A stretch of 64,000 nucleotides of DNA from Candidatus Bathyarchaeota archaeon (GCA_005888745.1 VBBS01000031.1:55614-119613), one strand, 5' to 3'. Counted from the stretch's first letter, positions 4,821 through 33,913 are shown. A program made the numbers and translations. Notes: a model not told the origin generated them from the letters alone.

Positions 4821-5651
4821 CTAGGCTTAGCAACGATACTAGCCGTTCAATCCTTCAAGGGCGGAACTGGTAAAAGCACGGTCAGCGCCAACCTTGCAGT
4901 TACACTCGCCAAACTGGGCAAGAGGGTTGCTGTGATCGACCTTGACCTGGAAGGCCCCGGGCTGCATGTGATCTTCGGAATATCTGACGCTGAGATCAAG
5001 GTGACGATAAACGATGTTCTCCAATCTGCAATTCCCATTAGGGATGCTGTTCTTGATCTAACTCATAGGCTTGAAATCGAATCGGGATGCCTCCTCTTCT
5101 GTCCAGCAGGCCACAGGCTTGAAGAGATTCTCAAAATGGTCGACACCGGCTTCAATCTCAGCCGCTTCAAAGCAGTTCTCTACAACCTAGCCACGGAATA
5201 CCGGCTTGACTATCTCCTAATAGACAGCCATCCTGGAATAGAAAAAGACACAATCCTATCCATGGCGGTCTGCGACGTCGTAGTTCTATTGTCCCGGGTT
5301 GATCACCAGGACATGTTCGGAAGCGGCGTCATGAACGAAGTAGCGAGCCAGTTGAGGAAGCCAGTGGTTTTGATACTCAACATGATACCTAGTAGCGTAG
5401 GAGAGAAGGAATCCAAGAAGATTGGAGAGAAAATCGCAAGCCTCTTCAATCTCCAAGTCCTCACTGCTCTACCCTTCAACTCGGACGTCTTCGAAAACCT
5501 CAGCAGAGGAGTATTCGTTCTTGAACATCAGAAGGATCCGCTCACCCGAAGATTCGCAGAACTCGCCGAGAACATGATAGGCATCATTGATCGGGCGCTG
5601 GCAGGCGGAGAGAGTTATGATAATGGATCTACTCCTCAGACAGTTGGATAA
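4821..5651 (+). CDS. MinD/ParA-like P-loop ATPase, paralogue of 28649..29434; start codon unresolved
   Basis: The open frame from 4821 encodes ILAVQSFKGGTGKSTVSANLAVTLAKLGKRVAVIDLDLEGPGLHV, colinear with the intact paralogue. The Walker A lies upstream of the first ATG/GTG/TTG (the GTG at 4932). The in-frame ATG at 4800 is followed by TGA at 4818. Confidence 0.65.
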   Translation, partial: LGLATILAVQSFKGGTGKSTVSANLAVTLAKLGKRVAVIDLDLEGPGLHVIFGISDAEIKVTINDVLQSAIPIRDAVLDLTHRLEIESGCLLFCPAGHRLEEILKMVDTGFNLSRFKAVLYNLATEYRLDYLLIDSHPGIEKDTILSMAVCDVVVLLSRVDHQDMFGSGVMNEVASQLRKPVVLILNMIPSSVGEKESKKIGEKIASLFNLQVLTALPFNSDVFENLSRGVFVLEHQKDPLTRRFAELAENMIGIIDRALAGGESYDNGSTPQTVG

Positions 5652-5892: not shown

Positions 5893-7098
5893 TTGAGTTA
5901 CCAGTTGGCAGACGAGTATTTCCAGCGGATTCACCAGATAATGTCACTGCTAGATGATGAGAATGTAGAGATTATTGGCGCGATGAAGAAGTTCGGGCCT
6001 CGAAACCTCCAGTCGATTGCCCGAAAATCTGGCGTCCCATATCCAACGGTCTACACTCGCGTTAACAAGCTGGGTACTCAGGGATTGCTCGACACTTGGA
6101 CCTATCCCAACCTTGCCAAGATCGGATTGGCCCGGTCGATGGTTCTACTAACTCCCTCGCCAGGTCGAGAGATAATAGCTAGCGAAGCCCTGAAGATTCC
6201 CGGCTACTGGCTCTGGATCGCAAGATGCACGGGCGAATGCAACGGATACTACTCGCAACATGCTGTTCCTGTTGAAAACAGACAAGACTTTGTTCAGTAT
6301 CTAGACCAGATAGTCTCATCGGGCCTCGCAACAAGTTACAGGATCTTCTGGCTTGGCGACTACCACTCTCACATTCCCAACTTTGAATACTACGATTTCA
6401 AAAAAAGAGCCTGGAGATTCGACTGGCCAGCATGGCTCAGCTTGTTTATGAAAGGCAAGAGTGTTCAGAATGGTCCCGAGGAAAAAGAGTCATCAAAGGA
6501 TGACTTTGACAAGAACGACCTGCTGATTCTCAAAGAGCTAATGAAGGATGCTCGAAAGAAACTCTCCGAACTCTCCCAGCTAATCGGAATGACGCTTCCC
6601 GCAGCCAAGTACCGGTTCGACAACCTGGCCAGGCGAGGATTCTTACAAGACTACGTTATCCAAGTTCTGCCGTACCCACCGGAGATATCGGACCTTTACG
6701 AGGTTCGATTAGACTTCGGGGAACACAAGGCGATGATCGCAAAGGAGAACTTCTTCAAACGCCTACCGTTCGTCTTGAACTATTCGAGGATAAAAGGGAC
6801 AAACTCGATAACCCTCAGAGTCTACCTTCCGAGAACGGAGGTCAACAATCTCTTGACGTTGCTATCGGCCCTCGTCAGGGGAGGCGCGATAGACCGGTTC
6901 TCATACATGTTTCTCGATCCTATGACGATCCAATCTCAGACCTTCCACTACAAGGCCTTCGACGACAAGTCGGGATGGCATTATGACAACCACGATTACC
7001 TAGCCGCTCTCCGCAAGCTTGCATCCTCCTTCGACAAGGCTGAACATTCAGCAGTTACCTTCCAGCCGTCGAAGGGCCTGCCTGTCAGCATGATGTAG
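5893..7098 (+). CDS. Putative transcriptional regulator with two TrmB-type winged-HTH domains (paralogue A)
   Basis: HTH 1 reads NVEIIGAMKKFGPRNLQSIARKSGVPYPTVYTRVNKLGTQGLL and HTH 2 reads DLLILKELMKDARKKLSELSQLIGMTLPAAKYRFDNLARRGFL. Both resemble the TrmB HTH of 60773..61654. A conserved CTGECNGYY motif is present. 401 aa with a TTG start. Confidence 0.6.
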   Translation: MSYQLADEYFQRIHQIMSLLDDENVEIIGAMKKFGPRNLQSIARKSGVPYPTVYTRVNKLGTQGLLDTWTYPNLAKIGLARSMVLLTPSPGREIIASEALKIPGYWLWIARCTGECNGYYSQHAVPVENRQDFVQYLDQIVSSGLATSYRIFWLGDYHSHIPNFEYYDFKKRAWRFDWPAWLSLFMKGKSVQNGPEEKESSKDDFDKNDLLILKELMKDARKKLSELSQLIGMTLPAAKYRFDNLARRGFLQDYVIQVLPYPPEISDLYEVRLDFGEHKAMIAKENFFKRLPFVLNYSRIKGTNSITLRVYLPRTEVNNLLTLLSALVRGGAIDRFSYMFLDPMTIQSQTFHYKAFDDKSGWHYDNHDYLAALRKLASSFDKAEHSAVTFQPSKGLPVSMM

Positions 7099-7154: not shown

Positions 7155-8444
7155 CTATTGAAAGCTCGGGACCGGCGCAGTTTGGAAAATTACCCGCATA
7201 CCATCCTCCTTATCAAATGCAGATGACACCTTCCTAAGCTCTTCAAAGTATTCCAAGTTGTCGTAGCGCCATCCAGTGCTATCTTCATAGAACTTGTACG
7301 CGAAGGTCTGCGTTCTGATAGTCATGGGGTCAAGCAAGACGTAGGTGAATCCTGCAAGGACTCCTCTTCGCGTTAGCGCGGAGAACATCGTGAGTAGATT
7401 GTTCATCTGGGTCCGAGGAAGATAGATTCTGACGGCAACGGAATTGGCACCTTCCACCCGGGAAAGAGTCAAGACCATTGGAAGACTGCTCAATACCTTC
7501 TCGCCAAGGCCCAAGCCTTCCCGCGTCTGGAAATCCAGGACCATTTCATAGAGGTCGGAGATTTCAGGAGCGAAGGGCAGCATGTCGATAACGTATTCAC
7601 GTATGAACCCAGATTGCGCCAGATTGTCGAAACGATATTTGACTGCTGGGACTGTCATACCTAACAACTGCGCAAGTTCAGTCAGCTTTGTTCGGCCATC
7701 CTTGATCAACTCCTTGAGAATGATCAGGTCCTTCTTGTCGAATGGACTGGGCAGAGAGGTTTCCTTACGTTGAGCTTGAACTGGTTTTGCGGCTAAAGCG
7801 TCGAGCCATTTCGGCCAGTCGAATGTCCACGTCTTCTTTTTGGTATCGTAATAACTAAAATCCGGGAGTGGTGACCCCGCTTCTTCTAGCCAGAAAAGCC
7901 GGTATTCCGTTGCGATTCCCGACGCGACTATCCTTTCAAGGTATTGTTCAAAATCCCAGCGCTTCTCAAGGGGAATCGCGTGAGTCGAGTAGTAGCCGTT
8001 GCATTCTCCCATGCACCTGATGAGTCTCAACCAGTATCCAGGAACCCGGAGCGCTTCTGGAGCAAGCAGTTCCTTGCCTGGCTTTGTTGTGAGGAAGACC
8101 ATGGCTCTCACCAGACCTAGTTTCGCGTAGTCGGGATGGATCCAGGTTCGAAGCAATCCTTCTTTTTCGAGTTTGGAGACTCTCGTGTGGACTGTCGGTC
8201 GGGGAATGTTTGTCTTGTCAGCTATGAGTTGGAGGTTTCTTAGGCCATATTTTCTCATCGCCATGATGATCTTGACGTTTTGGTGGTCCAAAAAGGAGAC
8301 GAAGCGATTGATCTTCTCCAAGTACTCTTCTGGGGCGATATGGCTCAAATATGGTCCGAAGAAGACAGGGGGCACTCGGAACTTTTCAAGGTTTTGTCTA
8401 CATTGGGATAGTCTTTGGAGTTGGCAGACCTGGATCGCCTCCAT
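7155..8444 (-). CDS. Putative transcriptional regulator with two TrmB-type winged-HTH domains (paralogue B, convergent with A)
   Basis: Colinear with 5893..7098 along the whole length, including the CMGECNGYY motif and both HTH modules. Confidence 0.6.
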   Translation of the reverse strand: MEAIQVCQLQRLSQCRQNLEKFRVPPVFFGPYLSHIAPEEYLEKINRFVSFLDHQNVKIIMAMRKYGLRNLQLIADKTNIPRPTVHTRVSKLEKEGLLRTWIHPDYAKLGLVRAMVFLTTKPGKELLAPEALRVPGYWLRLIRCMGECNGYYSTHAIPLEKRWDFEQYLERIVASGIATEYRLFWLEEAGSPLPDFSYYDTKKKTWTFDWPKWLDALAAKPVQAQRKETSLPSPFDKKDLIILKELIKDGRTKLTELAQLLGMTVPAVKYRFDNLAQSGFIREYVIDMLPFAPEISDLYEMVLDFQTREGLGLGEKVLSSLPMVLTLSRVEGANSVAVRIYLPRTQMNNLLTMFSALTRRGVLAGFTYVLLDPMTIRTQTFAYKFYEDSTGWRYDNLEYFEELRKVSSAFDKEDGMRVIFQTAPVPSFQ

Positions 8445-27669: not shown

Positions 27670-27782
27670 GCCGGGATGGCTGAGTGGTTAAAGCGACGGC
27701 CTCGAGATCTCAAGTGATAAGGGCCAGGACACGACAGCCGTTGGGCGTCACGCCCTCGTGGGTTCGAATCCCACTCCCGGCG
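27670..27782 (+). tRNA. tRNA-Ser(CGA) with a ~29-nt intron at the canonical 37/38 position
   Basis: Acceptor GCCGGGA/TCCCGGC, discriminator G, 3-bp D-stem GCT/AGC with a long D-loop. Anticodon stem ACGGC...GCCGT with loop CUCGAG+A, interrupted after position 37. Long variable hairpin GGGCGTCACGCCC. T-arm GTGGG-TTCGAAT-CCCAC. Confidence 0.7.
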
Positions 27783-27834: not shown

Positions 27835-28659
27835 CTAGCTCTTCTTGAACTTGTTCCAGAAATGCTGTTTGTGTTTGGCGATTCTGGCCGCTTTCTCGAC
27901 CCCAGCATCAATGTCCGCACCTTCCGACTTTTCGTTCTGCTCGTCCGACGAGGCTTCTGACGTGCCGATAGCAGACTTTGAGCTAGTTGAGCCTCCACCG
28001 GTTCCGGGCTTCACCTCTCCCCTCAGCGGCGCTCCACCATCAACGTCCGTCATGTCAACTTTAGGCCTCTCTGCTTCTTGCCCATCGCCTGTTTCGACGA
28101 GGGAGATCTGGAACTCGCACTCGGCCTCGCCTTGCGACATACAGCGGACTTCTTTGGCTTGAACTGTCTTGTCGAGCACTTCGGCGAATATTCCAGCTAG
28201 AAAGCCGCTTGTAAATATGCAGTTAGGTTCTTCCGAGGATCCGTTTTCAGTGGCTTCGAAGCAGTTGGCTACGACTATGTTTGCGTTGCTCTTGTCGAAA
28301 TCGAGCCCGCTGATCCGGATCTTGCCCAGGCCAAGGTTCGTGTCCTCGAGCGCCGAGTGAACCAGGTTTTCTAGACTCTGTCTACTTTGTTCGCCTGTGG
28401 TCCCTATGCTTTCTCTGAAAATGCTCCCTTCGTGTACACCGATCCCGCTCGCCAGGTAGGAGAGGAATGGTGCTGACTGGTCTCCGACCAGTCTTTCGAG
28501 TGCTTCCCTCATGATCCGGATAACATCCCTCCTCAGAATGATCATTTTCTGTCCAAAGAAGGACACTTCTCCTTTGTTGTCGTTGAAGCGGAGCTGGTTC
28601 ACTGATCCTACGAGTCTTCGGAGGTCGTAGCCCGTTGAGCGTTTGGGGTTAGTTTGCAA
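27835..28659 (-). CDS. V4R (4-vinyl reductase) domain protein with a disordered Gly/Ser/acidic C-terminal tail
   Basis: V4R-like core with conserved Cys and GF..G positions (...NCFEATENG...CIFTSGFLAGIFAEVL...). The start overlaps the upstream MinD-like gene by 11 nt. Confidence 0.65.
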   Translation of the reverse strand: MQTNPKRSTGYDLRRLVGSVNQLRFNDNKGEVSFFGQKMIILRRDVIRIMREALERLVGDQSAPFLSYLASGIGVHEGSIFRESIGTTGEQSRQSLENLVHSALEDTNLGLGKIRISGLDFDKSNANIVVANCFEATENGSSEEPNCIFTSGFLAGIFAEVLDKTVQAKEVRCMSQGEAECEFQISLVETGDGQEAERPKVDMTDVDGGAPLRGEVKPGTGGGSTSSKSAIGTSEASSDEQNEKSEGADIDAGVEKAARIAKHKQHFWNKFKKS

Positions 28660-29434
28660 TCTTTGTTGCTCCTGATAATTCTCTCTCCAATATTTCTACC
28701 GCCTCACCTATTTTCTTGGCAAAGGGTGAGTCGGGATTGTCTACGACGAATACGGATCTGCTGAGGTTGTTGATAACGTCCAACTGGAACTCGAAGGCTT
28801 GTAAGAACCGCGACCTGAACAGCTGAGACAGTTCCTGTCCGACCTTTACAGCGTCCTTGATCCGAACACCGGGCGGAACCATGTTGAGCGTGAGAAAGGT
28901 GGGTTTTTCGAATGTTTCCGCTAACAACACCATTACCGCAGTCCCGAACAAGTCTTGCTGATCAACTCTTGACACCAGGACTAGGGCATCGCAGCAACCC
29001 ATCGCGAGAACAGTATCGTTCTCGACTCCGGGGTGAGTGTCGACTATGATATAGTCGAGCTTGTTTTGTTCTCCAACCTTCTGTATCGTGTCTTGGAATA
29101 TTTCGACTTCGAGTCCTGATTTCAGTAGTCGGAGCATATCCTCCACCTTGTTGCTGGCGGGACAGAAGAACAGTCCGCCCTTCTTGAGGTTGAACCTCTG
29201 CGTCAGATCTATCACTACCTCTGCCGGTGTTGCGTCTCCAAGAAATATATCAGTGAGGGTTGCCTTGATCTCGCTCTTCTTCAAACCGAAAAGCACGTGT
29301 AGACCGGGTCCGGATAGGTCGAGGTCCATTACTCCAACTCTGCAGTTCCTGGCGAGAACGGCCGCAAGGTTCGCAGTTAGGGTTGTTTTTCCTGTTCCTC
29401 CTTTGAACGAGTGAACAGCGATTACTTTTGTCAT
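28649..29434 (-). CDS. MinD/ParA-like P-loop ATPase
   Basis: MTKVIAVHSFKGGTGKTTLTANLA... deviant Walker A, then Switch I/II and DTHPG; paralogue of 4821..5651. Confidence 0.8.
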   Translation of the reverse strand: MTKVIAVHSFKGGTGKTTLTANLAAVLARNCRVGVMDLDLSGPGLHVLFGLKKSEIKATLTDIFLGDATPAEVVIDLTQRFNLKKGGLFFCPASNKVEDMLRLLKSGLEVEIFQDTIQKVGEQNKLDYIIVDTHPGVENDTVLAMGCCDALVLVSRVDQQDLFGTAVMVLLAETFEKPTFLTLNMVPPGVRIKDAVKVGQELSQLFRSRFLQAFEFQLDVINNLSRSVFVVDNPDSPFAKKIGEAVEILERELSGATKIAN

Positions 29435-31830
29435 TCTTTATCCTTCTTCAACTGGTCTTTTACCGACTGGAAGAATTCCTGGTTCTCGATTCTTCCTGCT
29501 TCCGCCTTTACAGCCTCGAGGTCGATCTTCAACCTCGCATGTGTCACCTTGTGTCTCCTGAACGCTAGGAAGGTGCCGATCAAGAGCGTAGCGATTAGAG
29601 CAGCAAGGATGCCGAAATAGTACAATGGAAAAGATACGTTGCTGCTTGGCTGATTTGGTTGGATCGCGATGGTGGATGTCGCGGTTTTTGTCGATCCATT
29701 GTTGTCAACAGCAGTAATCGTGACTGTGTAGGTCGCCGAGGGAGAGGAACTCGCCAACGAGTAGGTGTGACTATCAGTCGTTGTCCCCGGAGCGATTGTA
29801 TCGACCTTTCCATCACCCCAGTTCACGGTGACGCCCGTTACTGTTCCATCCGGGTCGGAGGACGAGAACGTTACAGTGACCGCCTGGCCAGACGTGCCAG
29901 ACGCCGACGGCGGAGTCCACGTTATCACGGGCGGTTGGTCGGTGACCGTGATGCTGGGCGTCGCACTTGATGTCGAACCGCTATTGTCGTGTACCGTTAC
30001 GGTAATGGTGTAGGTTGCCGAAGGAATTCCGTTTGCCAACGAGTAGGAGTGACTATCCGTGGAAGGAGGCCCTGATATCGTATCGACGATTCCGTCTCCC
30101 CAGTTGACCGTAGTGGTTGCAATCGTGCCGTCGGAATCAGAGGCGGAGATGGTAACGATGACGGCTTGCCCCGGTGCAGGAGTTGTGGAGGATGTTGTTA
30201 TCGTGACGACAGGCGGTCGATCGGTGATAGTTACCGCCTGGATGGAGACAGATGTGGAGCCGCTATTGTCGGTAACATTCAGCCTCGCCGTGTATATGCC
30301 GGCGACCGAATAGCTGTGAGACGGTGCGGCTCCAGATCCCGTCGATCCGTCACCGAAATCCCAGGCATAGCCTACGATCGTTCCGTCGGGATCAAAACTC
30401 GCGGTCCCGTCGAAGCTCACTGAGACAGCTGTTAGAATTGTCCCGCTCGTGAAACTGAAGATCGCTGTAGGGAGCCTGTCTTGTAACTGGATTGTCTTAG
30501 TGGCCTTTCCGGAGTTTACCGGGGACGTTGAGTCTGCTCCGGCCACCGTAAGCGACCATAGACCTCCCGGCTCATTGCCGGGGGTATATTGTCCAACCCA
30601 GAGGTTGAGGGTTGAATCGAAGACTACCGGTATTGTATCGTTATGTCCGCCTCCCGAGAATAGGAGGAAGGCAGCTACTTGGCCCGACTGTAGGTTTGTT
30701 AAGTCAGGGTAATCGATCGTGGCGTTGAACCTGATCTGTTCGCCTATGGCAAAATAAGGCTTGGAAGTAATAGTGATCGTGAGCGTTGCGGGTTGAAGTT
30801 GAGGTGATGTTGTCACTGGGATGCTTGGGCCATTGTTTCCGAATCCATCATCGAAACCGTTGACCCCTAGCGACGAAGTCCAAACGCCTGTCTGATTATT
30901 AGGAAATGTCTTGTAGGTTGCGTTGAAGGTCTGAGCGACACTGTCATAAACGGCTGTTAGTGGTACTGTGCTTCCGCCGGGGCTTGCTAAAGTCACCAGT
31001 GCTGTTCCGCTGTTAGCGTATTGTCCATCTGGGTAGGTTGACTTGAATGAGAATTTCATTGTCTCCGTTCTCTGATAGGAGGCTTTGCTAGATGTGAATG
31101 TTGAGATCGACATTGTTGCAGCTCGTACAATGAACCCTTGAGCGTCCGGCGGGTTCTTCGCCGTAACCTGGCCTGTTATGGTGATCAGATAGTTGTCGAT
31201 GATTGCGTTTCTAGGGATCTTCCAGGAGCCGGTGACTATTCCCGTTGATGAGGCTGCAGTTGTTGTGTTGAGAACGACTGTTGAACTCGTTTGGGCTCTT
31301 ATGATAACCGTTGCCGATTCTAAGCTATTGTATCCTGTAGCTCTTATTCCCACCGTGTCAGTCCTTTGATACTCGGTATTGTCCGTGAGAATAAAGAAGA
31401 AACCATTGGTAGTAAGGGCCACAGCAGTGTTTGTTGCCAATGCCGGCCTCGTCTGGTTAACCCATCCGACATACTGCCCTACGAGGGAGCTTGTGCCGCC
31501 ACCGACACCTGTGAAAGCAGCGCTCGGATATGACGGGAGTAGGCTGAACTGCGTTTGACCTGAGAACGTCGTATAGTTTTCGAGAACGGAATTCCATACC
31601 TTTGTCGAGGGATCCCGAACGTGGAAGCTGAACTGATAGAGTGTACTAGGAGAAGCTCCAACTACATTCAGAATTAGAAGAACCGAGTATCCCTCTTGCG
31701 TGATGAATGGTAGCGGTGTCAACGAATATTGAGGAACGGCATGCGCGGAAGGAGGAAGACCTGCAAAGGTCAGAGAGATAATCGATACCGCAAAGAGGAC
31801 AGCGTATCTAGTCGTTTTGGCTTGTGGCAC
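29431..31830 (-). CDS. Large secreted surface protein with tandem PKD domains, an N-terminal signal peptide, and a C-terminal TM anchor plus charged tail
   Basis: Signal peptide (MPQAKTTRYAVLFAVSIISLTFAGLPPSAHA). At least three PKD repeats (WDFGDGS..., VNWGDGIVDT..., VNWGDGKVDT...), which also show as ~290-nt DNA-level repeats. C-terminal hydrophobic helix followed by a KE-rich tail. The stop overlaps the MinD start. Confidence 0.75.
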   Translation of the reverse strand: MPQAKTTRYAVLFAVSIISLTFAGLPPSAHAVPQYSLTPLPFITQEGYSVLLILNVVGASPSTLYQFSFHVRDPSTKVWNSVLENYTTFSGQTQFSLLPSYPSAAFTGVGGGTSSLVGQYVGWVNQTRPALATNTAVALTTNGFFFILTDNTEYQRTDTVGIRATGYNSLESATVIIRAQTSSTVVLNTTTAASSTGIVTGSWKIPRNAIIDNYLITITGQVTAKNPPDAQGFIVRAATMSISTFTSSKASYQRTETMKFSFKSTYPDGQYANSGTALVTLASPGGSTVPLTAVYDSVAQTFNATYKTFPNNQTGVWTSSLGVNGFDDGFGNNGPSIPVTTSPQLQPATLTITITSKPYFAIGEQIRFNATIDYPDLTNLQSGQVAAFLLFSGGGHNDTIPVVFDSTLNLWVGQYTPGNEPGGLWSLTVAGADSTSPVNSGKATKTIQLQDRLPTAIFSFTSGTILTAVSVSFDGTASFDPDGTIVGYAWDFGDGSTGSGAAPSHSYSVAGIYTARLNVTDNSGSTSVSIQAVTITDRPPVVTITTSSTTPAPGQAVIVTISASDSDGTIATTTVNWGDGIVDTISGPPSTDSHSYSLANGIPSATYTITVTVHDNSGSTSSATPSITVTDQPPVITWTPPSASGTSGQAVTVTFSSSDPDGTVTGVTVNWGDGKVDTIAPGTTTDSHTYSLASSSPSATYTVTITAVDNNGSTKTATSTIAIQPNQPSSNVSFPLYYFGILAALIATLLIGTFLAFRRHKVTHARLKIDLEAVKAEAGRIENQEFFQSVKDQLKKDKE

Positions 31831-33016: not shown

Positions 33017-33913
33017 CTACTTCTTTTTGCTTGTACGAGGCTTGTCCGACGTCAGTACAGGAACTGGGAGCGGAACCTCTACGATTCCAGAAGCTGTAAC
33101 CTGGAATGTCACCCAATGGGTTTCATGAGGCGCCCCCTTCATCTTTCGTATCCGGAACTGTTTGACGAGTAGGCCTCTATCGGCGAACCCGGGGTTGAAT
33201 CTCACATCAACTATTCCGTCAACCACATAGAACAATAGATCGTCAAGGTCAGCATACGCGCGAAGCGGCGTGTGGTGAGAGCAGAAGAAGGGAACTAGAC
33301 GTTCCTTGGGACCCTTAGCCCGCCAAGACTTGACACCGTCAAGCATGTGGAAGACCAACGGTCTCTCTTCCTGAACAAGTGTAAACATCTCTGTCAAGGA
33401 ATCGACAAAGACGGCGCCTCTTCCCATCATTTTCATTTCTTCCATCATCGTGAAGAGAGCGCTCGTGACAGAGTGAAGATCTTTCGGATCCTTGACAAAG
33501 TGGGAATATTTCGGAGTCTCAGTTGGTTCCATTCTGAAAGAGAAGCAGTCTAGAAACCTGAGCTGGCCGGAATCCAAATACCGGTCGATGTCCCAGCCGA
33601 ATGACTCCATGTCCTGTTGAAGTGCTATTGGAGGTCCTTCAAAATTCATGTAGATGCACGGCTCCTTCTCTACCTTTAGCATGCTGTAGAGGAGCTGTTC
33701 CATCAGCACGGATTTTCCTGTCCCAAGGTCTCCTGCCAGAATTGTAAGGCTGTTTCTGGGTATCCCCTTTGGAAGGACTTTGTCCACAGCGTCAATTCCG
33801 GTCTCGAACGACTTTGGCAGTCCGACCATCCTTCGAGTTTCAACGGATTTAGCTGTCGAGATAAAGGATATTGTAACTGTCTTGAAGGTTAGCCCTATGC
33901 TAAACTGTGTCAT
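33017..33913 (-). CDS. KaiC-like / RecA-superfamily ATPase (single KaiC domain)
   Basis: Walker A ILAGDLGTGKSVL, followed by the KaiC-type core and Walker B (...AVFVDSL). Confidence 0.7.
   Translation of the reverse strand: MTQFSIGLTFKTVTISFISTAKSVETRRMVGLPKSFETGIDAVDKVLPKGIPRNSLTILAGDLGTGKSVLMEQLLYSMLKVEKEPCIYMNFEGPPIALQQDMESFGWDIDRYLDSGQLRFLDCFSFRMEPTETPKYSHFVKDPKDLHSVTSALFTMMEEMKMMGRGAVFVDSLTEMFTLVQEERPLVFHMLDGVKSWRAKGPKERLVPFFCSHHTPLRAYADLDDLLFYVVDGIVDVRFNPGFADRGLLVKQFRIRKMKGAPHETHWVTFQVTASGIVEVPLPVPVLTSDKPRTSKKK

Follow-up and report, generated by a model that had tools for sequence, protein, structure and literature searches.

ATPases of the ParA/MinD superfamily organise many bacterial and euryarchaeal structures, and little is known of them in the Thermoproteota-related archaea that are abundant in soil. 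True MinD homologues have been reported only in Euryarchaeota, where the targeting helix of MinD4 is essential. In ParA-like systems that handle other cargoes, contact with the ATPase dimer is expected to be made through a short peptide of the partner, and in the CapA/CapB split bacterial tyrosine kinases (BY-kinases) the cytoplasmic fragment of CapA activates the CapB kinase. For V4R domains, binding of hydrophobic ligands and signalling in cis or in trans have been suggested, and the V4R/Bet3 signature consists of GxxxG doublets in helices alpha2 and alpha5 (PMC2253512). Here we describe three overlapping genes that encode a surface protein, an ATPase of the ParA/MinD superfamily and a stand-alone V4R protein, found within a 64,000-nucleotide (nt) stretch of a Candidatus Bathyarchaeota archaeon genome (VBBS01000031.1:55614-119613; hereafter the window, with positions counted from its start).

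The module appears to be a ParA/MinD-superfamily system in which the cargo itself bears a C-terminal 'address' peptide and the V4R protein is an accessory. It is apparently undescribed: literature searches on V4R together with MinD/ParA, on archaeal MinD paralogues, on COG1719 and on immunoglobulin (Ig)-protein modules returned no published description of the surface protein/ATPase/V4R combination, as a preliminary description of the window had supposed. We put at about even chances the reading that the peptide docks the ATPase on its partner, that the ATPase clusters or positions this partner, and that the V4R protein tunes the ATPase cycle.

A recurrent three-gene unit

Open reading frame (ORF) calling on the window gave three overlapping minus-strand ORFs in the order surface protein, ATPase, V4R protein (Table 1), and direct reading bore out both the coordinates and the two overlaps of the preliminary description. 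An ATGA at 29434..29431 holds the stop codon of the surface-protein gene and the start codon of the ATPase gene; the TTG start of the V4R gene (28659) overlaps the end of the ATPase gene by 11 nt, the ATPase stop codon TAA lying at 28649..28651. The TTG start is supported by V4R homologues, which begin at the same position, some of them with methionine. The overlaps suggest that the three genes are a translationally coupled unit, although they are no demonstration of the fixed stoichiometry that had also been read from them. Base composition is flat across the window and chromosomal in character. Identical proteins were found on soil metagenome contigs, the nearest genomes are metagenome-assembled genomes (MAGs) of soil Bathyarchaeota/Bathyarchaeia, and the window ATPase is 98% identical to that of the soil Bathyarchaeia isolate BA_9.

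To survey other genomes, we scanned one genome per species (GTDB representatives) with an ATPase profile, and searched the flanks of the loci with small hidden Markov models (HMMs) representing the V4R protein and the surface protein's C-terminal part. Clades were taken from a neighbour-joining tree; that of the window, clade A, comprises 23 species-level genomes with 83-98% ATPase identity. At all 23 clade-A loci a tail-bearing ORF ends at the ATPase start and a V4R ORF begins at the ATPase end. The same triad is present at five of five clade-B loci, which represent two more divergent lineages (47-51% ATPase identity, 30-37% V4R identity) and have upstream proteins of 363-519 residues devoid of PKD repeats. 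Two further divergent ATPases, P0118 and P0119 (46% identity), are followed directly by a V4R gene, and at the P0118 locus a tail-bearing membrane protein with MG-like domains is encoded upstream. With L172 and the P0119 context taken as two further divergent triads, the divergent triad loci number at least seven. Their flanks differ between lineages (serine hydroxymethyltransferase/Sec61-beta, pilus-type ATPase genes, ABC-transporter genes), so that the triad travels as a unit through unlike neighbourhoods. The stop/start overlap between partner and ATPase recurs in nearly all loci of every clade, being mostly 4-8 nt, with one abutting pair and two gaps (1 and 5 nt). A reciprocal scan of metagenome contigs with a V4R profile found the ATPase upstream in 66 of 67 testable loci and the tail ORF in 51 of 51; as these loci belong to close relatives, they add numbers and not independent events.

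The preliminary description had itself proposed that a lack of co-localisation in other genomes would mark the three genes as a chance adjacency, and its operon has come through that test, in 23 of 23 clade-A genomes as in the divergent loci. An accident, or mere synteny among unrelated genes, might still be argued, since close relatives make up most of the 23+66 supporting loci and gene order could persist in them through synteny alone. Yet the triad recurs at 46-51% ATPase and 30-37% V4R identity between unrelated flanks, the overlapping stop and start codons are retained, and the tail of the upstream protein is under stronger constraint than the rest of it. Judged by these comparisons, the conservation of the triad far exceeds chance, and the comparative data have effectively refuted an accidental adjacency, to which we assign a negligible probability.

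Several neighbouring features were recorded. A tRNA gene at 27670-27782 (+), convergent with the V4R gene, scores 53 bits with Rfam and has a ~33-nt insertion (intron) after the anticodon loop and a long variable arm; its anticodon, read by eye, is CGA, so that it is probably a tRNA-Ser, although ARAGORN reported no tRNA anywhere in the window. A KaiC-like ATPase (PF06745, 103 bits) is encoded at 33017-33913 (-), upstream of the operon by ~1.2 kb, and keeps its synteny in clade A. At one clade-B locus (L009, 1-4464) a KaiC-like gene, a T2SSE gene and two T2SSF genes directly precede the triad, and another KaiC-like gene lies at 399-1193 of L010. We considered the KaiC-like ATPase and the pilus genes as module members and rejected them from the core, since they are absent from the clade-B loci other than L009. 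Module contigs also turn up in MAGs titled 'Candidatus Dormiibacterota bacterium' (DASPWZ, three loci) and 'bacterium' (JAJPJY, three loci), records that are probably mislabelled or mis-binned. The module is so far confined to soil Bathyarchaeia and Nitrososphaera.

The C-terminal peptide and its carriers

All aligned MG-like upstream proteins share a leader, MG2-like domains, one transmembrane (TM) helix and a cytoplasmic tail with a peptide of ~28 residues, whose consensus in the upstream-protein alignment is LK[IV]DLxA[VI]xxEAxx[IV]xxxEFFQS[VI]KxQL. In clades A, B, C and E the product of the upstream gene carries this peptide at its extreme C-terminus, as do histidine kinases in Nitrososphaera. 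Between clade-A species, identity amounts to 79-100% in the tail and to 50-75% in the ectodomain. Where the ATPases are 84-86% identical, the figures are 79-95% for the tail, 50-56% for the ectodomain, 73-77% for the V4R core and 13-24% for the V4R linker, and the conservation of the peptide equals that of the ATPase. On this comparison the conserved core of the upstream partner is the cytoplasmic peptide and not the PKD repeats. The latter, which the preliminary description had made a defining component, turn out to be a variable add-on missing from the divergent upstream proteins.

An exhaustive search of 1.84 billion protein cluster representatives with the tail profile (E<=0.001) returned 59 matches, where a word-indexed search had given only short contig-end fragments. 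In 55 of these the match lies no more than 11 residues from the C-terminus; of the other four, two are fragmentary and run on past the match, and the two that score weakest are repetitive proteins with an internal match. Among 30 full-length motif-bearing representatives, MG2 domains are present in 25, PKD in 8 and a histidine kinase in 1. The motif is rare and restricted to partners of this ATPase family. One protein combining Prok_Ub with the motif (P0283) looks chimeric or fragmentary and was not counted as a partner class. Single genomes contain several paralogous modules that differ from one another in their motif variants (for example at three loci of isolate BA_19, assembly VBBN), which fits cognate pairing of peptide and ATPase.

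The kinases provide a second kind of carrier. At six Nitrososphaera-type loci a histidine kinase gene lies directly upstream of the orthologous ATPase gene (49-60% identity), again with a stop/start overlap. These kinases consist of a TrmB-C-like region, HisKA, HATPase_c and a coiled-coil extension, have no TM segment, and end in ...AIRNEAGKVIESEFFQSLKKQL, the same peptide as in the surface-protein tail. In clade C, which is Bathyarchaeial, the pair consists of an MG-like tail protein and the ATPase, with no V4R gene. Since the V4R protein is missing in these two sister clades, it would be an accessory regulator and not an obligatory gate. As a separate observation, at two Nitrososphaera-type loci (L036, 4781-6535; L061, 6364-8478) the kinase/ATPase pair stands immediately upstream of genes that by eye are gas-vesicle-like (GvpA/J-like, GvpF/L-like), and the ATPase there might act on gas-vesicle regulation or placement.

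The two carriers bear on whether the ATPase could instead serve biogenesis, delivering, inserting or sorting the surface protein through its C-terminal region in the manner of SIMIBI nucleoside triphosphatases (NTPases) such as Get3/ArsA, FlhF or those of the signal recognition particle type. In favour of such a role, the ATPase is translationally coupled to a large secreted membrane protein and shares its P-loop class with targeting factors, giving weak matches to ArsA and MipZ. However, conservation falls on a soluble peptide after the TM helix and not on the helix itself, and the N-terminal signal peptide of the surface protein is of the ordinary kind. The ATPase showed none of the features of a Get3-type hydrophobic groove, and its family scores lie far below the cut-offs. 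The same peptide on a soluble kinase argues further against an insertion or targeting role, which we regard as improbable.

The signal peptide, the multiple PKD repeats, the single C-terminal TM helix and the short cytoplasmic tail reported earlier for the surface protein are all upheld by Pfam and by reading of the leader and TM helix. Its PKD_4/PKD score is 107 bits against a cut-off of 27, in three stretches, and together with the leader and the membrane anchor this identifies a surface protein; it carries 10 N-x-S/T sequons. The earlier account had not included the ~4 additional MG2-like beta-sandwich domains upstream of the PKD repeats, which also occur in the shorter paralogous partners. 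In an AlphaFold2 (AF2) model (mean predicted local distance difference test, pLDDT, 83.3) residues 34-723 are all-beta, with a helix at 4-23 in the leader and a terminal helix at 772-798. The top Foldseek matches are the MG-domain arrays of CD109, A2ML1 and C3, with E ~1e-21 but TM-scores of only 0.15-0.20, and neither Pfam nor Foldseek found thioester-domain (TED), CUB or bait elements, so that the protein does not qualify as an alpha-2-macroglobulin. The ectodomain is best described as a string of ~7 Ig-like domains. PKD repeats 2 and 3 (29753-30271, -) share 90-92% DNA identity in stretches at 282-nt spacing, which indicates a recent tandem duplication and matches the variation in repeat number between species. 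Total length of the protein ranges from 619 to 930 residues between species; taken with the duplication, this shows rapid evolution of the ectodomain through gain and loss of repeats.

Table 1. Features of the three-gene unit, in window coordinates.
Feature	Position	Strand	Residues or size	Description or basis
Surface protein	29431..31830	-	799 aa, GTG start	signal peptide, ~4 MG2-like beta-sandwich domains, 3 PKD, 1 TM, 42-aa tail
Signal-peptide-like leader	31738..31830	-	1-31	ends AHA before VPQ; sequence read, cleavage site inferred
N-terminal ectodomain array	30475..31734	-	~33-452	MG2-like Ig folds; alignment, Pfam in relatives, AF2 model
Three PKD repeats	29662..30468	-	~455-723	Pfam, DNA direct repeats
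Single TM helix	29560..29625	-	~736-757	Kyte-Doolittle, 19-residue window >1.8 only here
Cytoplasmic tail	29434..29559	-	758-799, 42 aa	clade-A identity pattern
Conserved C-terminal peptide LKIDLEAVKAEAGRIENQEFFQSVKDQL	29449..29532	-	767-794	proposed ATPase-docking motif
ParA/MinD-superfamily ATPase	28649..29434	-	261 aa, ATG start	Pfam/NCBIfam, PDB profile matches, family alignment
Deviant Walker A SFKGGTGKT	29384..29410	-	9-17	invariant across family alignment
Stand-alone V4R sensor protein	27835..28659	-	274 aa, TTG start	Pfam V4R + XylR_N
XylR_N+V4R sensor module	28090..28659	-	1 to ~190	alignment, putative Zn ligands, GxxxG doublets
Hypervariable low-complexity linker	27916..28089	-	~191-248	13-24% identity, variable length, pLDDT <50
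Cationic amphipathic C-terminal helix DAGVEKAARIAKHKQHFWNKFKKS	27838..27915	-		clade-A-specific; predicted helix 246-273

The ATPase and the V4R protein

The ATPase matches AAA_31, ParA and CbiA in Pfam and retains its Walker motifs, including the signature-lysine Walker A of MinD (KGGxGK[ST]), together with the family-specific invariant blocks DLxGPGLHV, DTHPGxExDT, SRxDQQDxFG and NMxP. Among PDB entries its best profile matches are the MinD proteins from Aquifex, Archaeoglobus and Pyrococcus (E 2e-21 to 8e-16). The earlier assignment as a MinD/ParA-like, deviant-Walker-A ATPase therefore stands, but the protein is not a true MinD: it scores 60.4 bits against a cut-off of 201.75 with TIGR01969 (minD_arch) and 50.5 against 212.9 with TIGR01968 (minD_bact), and the family alignment contains no conserved C-terminal amphipathic membrane-targeting helix, the C-termini being ...ELSGATKIAN or ...VEAFS. 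No MinC, MinE or equivalent domain occurs among the neighbouring genes at any examined locus. Scores for Mrp/NBP35/ApbC-type proteins are low (MrpORP 51 against 450, ApbC 32 against 348), no CxxC is present and the sole invariant cysteine is C148. The BY-kinase model TIGR01007 gives 38 against 108 and the ATPase has no C-terminal tyrosine cluster; the KGGVGR-motif ATPase model NF047398 gives 73.4 bits against 90, the motif in the window being KGGTGK. As regards a role in defence, PADLOC returned only a generic P-loop match (PDC-M28B, 36 bits, N-terminal part), so that nothing speaks for a defence system, and a 392-residue candidate ATPase fusion (P0003) was rejected as a read-through into another frame.

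ParA-family HMM matches and the pairing of distant relatives with a small upstream winged-helix protein leave room for a ParA-type partition system of DNA or a plasmid, for which either the V4R or the tail protein would serve as an unusual adaptor. The ParA_partition model NF041546, however, scores 48 against a cut-off of 180, Pfam and NCBIfam assign a DNA-binding domain to none of the three proteins, and the DNA around the operon contains no centromere-like iterons, its sole repeats being those that encode PKD domains. The lack of a DNA-binding partner and of iterons argues against partition, as does the chromosomal composition of the window, and we think this explanation very improbable. The distant relatives themselves (27-32% identity), found at seven loci of Methanomethylicota, Hermod-/Promethearchaeota and Nezhaarchaeales, are preceded by a winged-helix protein of 118-159 residues whose gene ends a few bases from, or well inside, the called ATPase start; this pair looks like a separate conserved two-gene system, probably linked to DNA.

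Within the window a second ATPase of the family is encoded at 4821..5651 (+). It had been called closely related; it is in fact only 42% identical to the operon ATPase, lacks a canonical start codon before Walker A, and belongs to clade D, which has neither a tail-bearing partner nor a V4R protein. The same lack of a canonical start ahead of Walker A (ATG, GTG or TTG) was noted at 12 further clade-D loci. Where homology would place the start codon, ATA is found in one subclade and TTA, replaced by TTG in two genomes, in the other; in each case a Shine-Dalgarno-like GGTGA or GAGG precedes it by 6-8 nt. As the missing start is conserved across genomes, it suggests near-cognate initiation and not a pseudogene. 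Two paralogous proteins of ~400 residues, encoded at 5893-7098 (+) and 7155-8444 (-), have two winged-helix domains each (TrmB/IclR-type N-terminal, HTH_24/AsnC-type central) and lie beside the clade-D ATPase both in the window and at one other locus (L044). A third copy is found near a clade-C module (L045), and a regulatory link of these proteins to the ATPase paralogues may exist.

The third gene product matches V4R (PF02830) at 55.5 bits against a gathering score of 31, and XylR_N weakly. In phmmer searches it matched the MopR sensor domain (5KBE, E 6.6e-5), PoxR (5FRU) and MJ1460 (2OSD), with whose sensor domains residues 1 to ~190 align over their full length. The putative zinc ligands C147/E170/C173/C181 are invariant across clades A and B. 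The three cysteines align to C155/C181/C189 of MopR and share their 26- and 8-residue spacings; in MopR-type sites the glutamate is a ligand as well, and the MopR-type zinc site is intact. The doublets G74-x3-G78 and G152-x3-G156 are conserved and match the V4R/Bet3 signature. The AAA+ sigma-54 domain and the helix-turn-helix of XylR/DmpR/MopR activators were not detected; the protein contains only XylR_N, V4R, the linker and the short helix.

The V4R assignment of the preliminary description holds; what it had called a long acidic Gly/Ser tail is a hypervariable linker ending in a conserved basic amphipathic helix, which had been missed. This helix (25-residue consensus DAGVExAxRIAKxKQxFWxKxFKK) is present in all clade-A homologues. 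Its hydrophobic moment (0.44-0.50) and net charge (+5 to +6) are of the kind expected for a helix lying on a membrane surface or for a basic peptide in contact with the ATPase. We considered that it might mimic the tail peptide and compete with it for one site, and rejected the idea, as the tail profile scores only 0-3.5 bits on it.

Proposed function and relation to known systems

We propose that the ATPase, which has no membrane anchor of its own, docks on the helical C-terminal peptide of the protein encoded just upstream. Docking would bring it to the membrane where the partner is the surface protein (glycosylated, on our proposal) or to the kinase in Nitrososphaera. ATP-dependent dimerisation would then pair, cluster or position the partner, as ParA/MinD ATPases do with other cargoes. 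For the XylR_N+V4R protein we suggest that it senses a small hydrophobic ligand and acts in trans on the ATPase cycle. The preliminary description had hypothesised a positioned adhesin or receptor whose placement a V4R sensor gates; both the positioning and the gating stay hypothetical here. In clade A the V4R protein could be held near the membrane or the ATPase by its flexible linker and cationic amphipathic helix.

Several observations weigh against this proposal. Clade C and the Nitrososphaera clade keep the peptide-ATPase pair without V4R, and within the triads the linker and C-terminal helix of the V4R protein are found only in clade A, the helix being absent from clade B. The anchors of the phenol hydroxyl in MopR are not conserved (the equivalent of H106, H101, occurs only in clade A, and the W134 position is Val), and the AF2 model of the V4R protein is poor (mean pLDDT 45.7). 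Tail-associated and tail-less (clade D) ATPases differ at seven positions, mostly conservatively (H8Q, L60I, S94G, E109N, T133S, G146A, T165S), and their comparison reveals no obvious docking patch. The neighbour-joining tree behind the clades comprises 38 sequences, and all members of the module come from uncultivated or hard-to-manipulate organisms.

Information might also flow from the outside in: the ectodomain would bind an external ligand or surface, the tail would alter dimerisation or nucleotide state of the ATPase, which would relay the signal as a switch, and the V4R protein would be a second, cytoplasmic input or the output. The same peptide on a histidine kinase in Nitrososphaera, the classical role of V4R as a sensory domain of signal-transduction proteins, and a fast-evolving ectodomain that gains and loses PKD repeats, as receptors and adhesins do, are all consistent with signalling. 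Yet one TM helix and a 42-residue tail offer no obvious conformational relay, the module encodes no DNA-binding or enzymatic output domain, and ParA/MinD ATPases are generally known mainly as spatial organisers. We consider signalling unlikely, though still a serious alternative; it overlaps with docking and positioning of the partner, and the two do not exclude each other.

A bolder form of the docking proposal would be an undescribed class of NTPase switch associated with the membrane, in which a portable C-terminal 'address' peptide on surface receptors or histidine kinases recruits the ATPase and the V4R protein is a ligand-gated regulator of its nucleotide state there. We think this quite doubtful. 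If true, it would be a prokaryotic precedent for the regulation of P-loop NTPases by V4R/Bet3-fold proteins, our V4R protein being what we take to be a prokaryotic relative of the TRAPP subunit Bet3, and it would provide archaea with a means of coupling cell surface to cytoplasm. Whatever the mechanism, the peptide common to a surface Ig-repeat protein and a histidine kinase is a concrete and easily testable candidate for docking. The ATPase is, to the best of our knowledge, the first conserved genomic partner of a V4R protein that stands alone in archaea, a protein type whose role has been in question ever since a link between V4R and Bet3 was put forward. The module also outlines a possible route tying an archaeal cell-surface protein to a cytoplasmic nucleotide switch, and the several paralogous modules per genome, with their own peptide variants, hint at a family of cognate pairs.

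MinD, from bacterial MinCDE to Haloferax MinD4, shares with the module ATPase the deviant Walker A motif and the best matches among solved structures, and the general logic of an ATP-driven dimer at the membrane may be common to both. It differs in its targeting helix, in the MinC and MinE partners and in its distribution: the module ATPase scores far below the MinD cut-offs, and its family occurs in Bathyarchaeia and Nitrososphaera and not in the Euryarchaeota, from which alone true homologues have been reported. On the V4R side, the sensor (A) domains of MopR/PoxR/DmpR/XylR, MJ1460 and Thor-TRAPPC3/Bet3 share the XylR_N+V4R architecture, the Cys/Glu/Cys/Cys zinc site and the GxxxG doublets; Thor-TRAPPC3 and PoxR bind zinc and are thought to bind ligands. 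The module V4R protein differs from the MopR-type sensors in having no AAA+ sigma-54 domain, helix-turn-helix or phenol anchors, and neither pairing with a MinD-type ATPase nor a linker with amphipathic helix has been described for any of these proteins.

The Dip system of Haloferax (the GTPase DipA with DipB and DipC) is likewise a three-protein archaeal NTPase module at the membrane, and one of its partners has conserved termini joined by a long disordered region, as in the V4R protein. This is an analogy only, drawn from the published description: Dip is GTPase-based, acts in cell division of FtsZ-using archaea and is called unrelated to Min in sequence by its authors. As precedents proper we rejected OrpR, which senses through PAS, the GTPase-based Dip, and VARTIG, which has no ATPase.

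The CapA/CapB split BY-kinases come closer in arrangement, since there the cytoplasmic C-terminal fragment of a membrane protein pairs with a MinD-fold protein encoded next to it; among the PDB matches (2VED, 3BFV, 4JLV) that fragment was fused to, and crystallised with, the P-loop protein. The likeness in sequence is confined to the P-loop region (~39 bits), and the module has neither the tyrosine cluster nor a polysaccharide-export context. The ParA-like cargo systems (ParC-ParP of chemoreceptor arrays, McdAB, PomXYZ, TadZ/CpaE, FlhG, BcsQ) resemble the module in that an ATPase is dedicated to one non-DNA cargo encoded next to it, although none of their family HMMs reaches its cut-off on the module ATPase. 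What sets the module apart from them is that the proposed docking peptide lies on the cargo itself, at its extreme C-terminus, and that this cargo is either a histidine kinase or an Ig-repeat surface protein that crosses the membrane once, with a V4R protein added.

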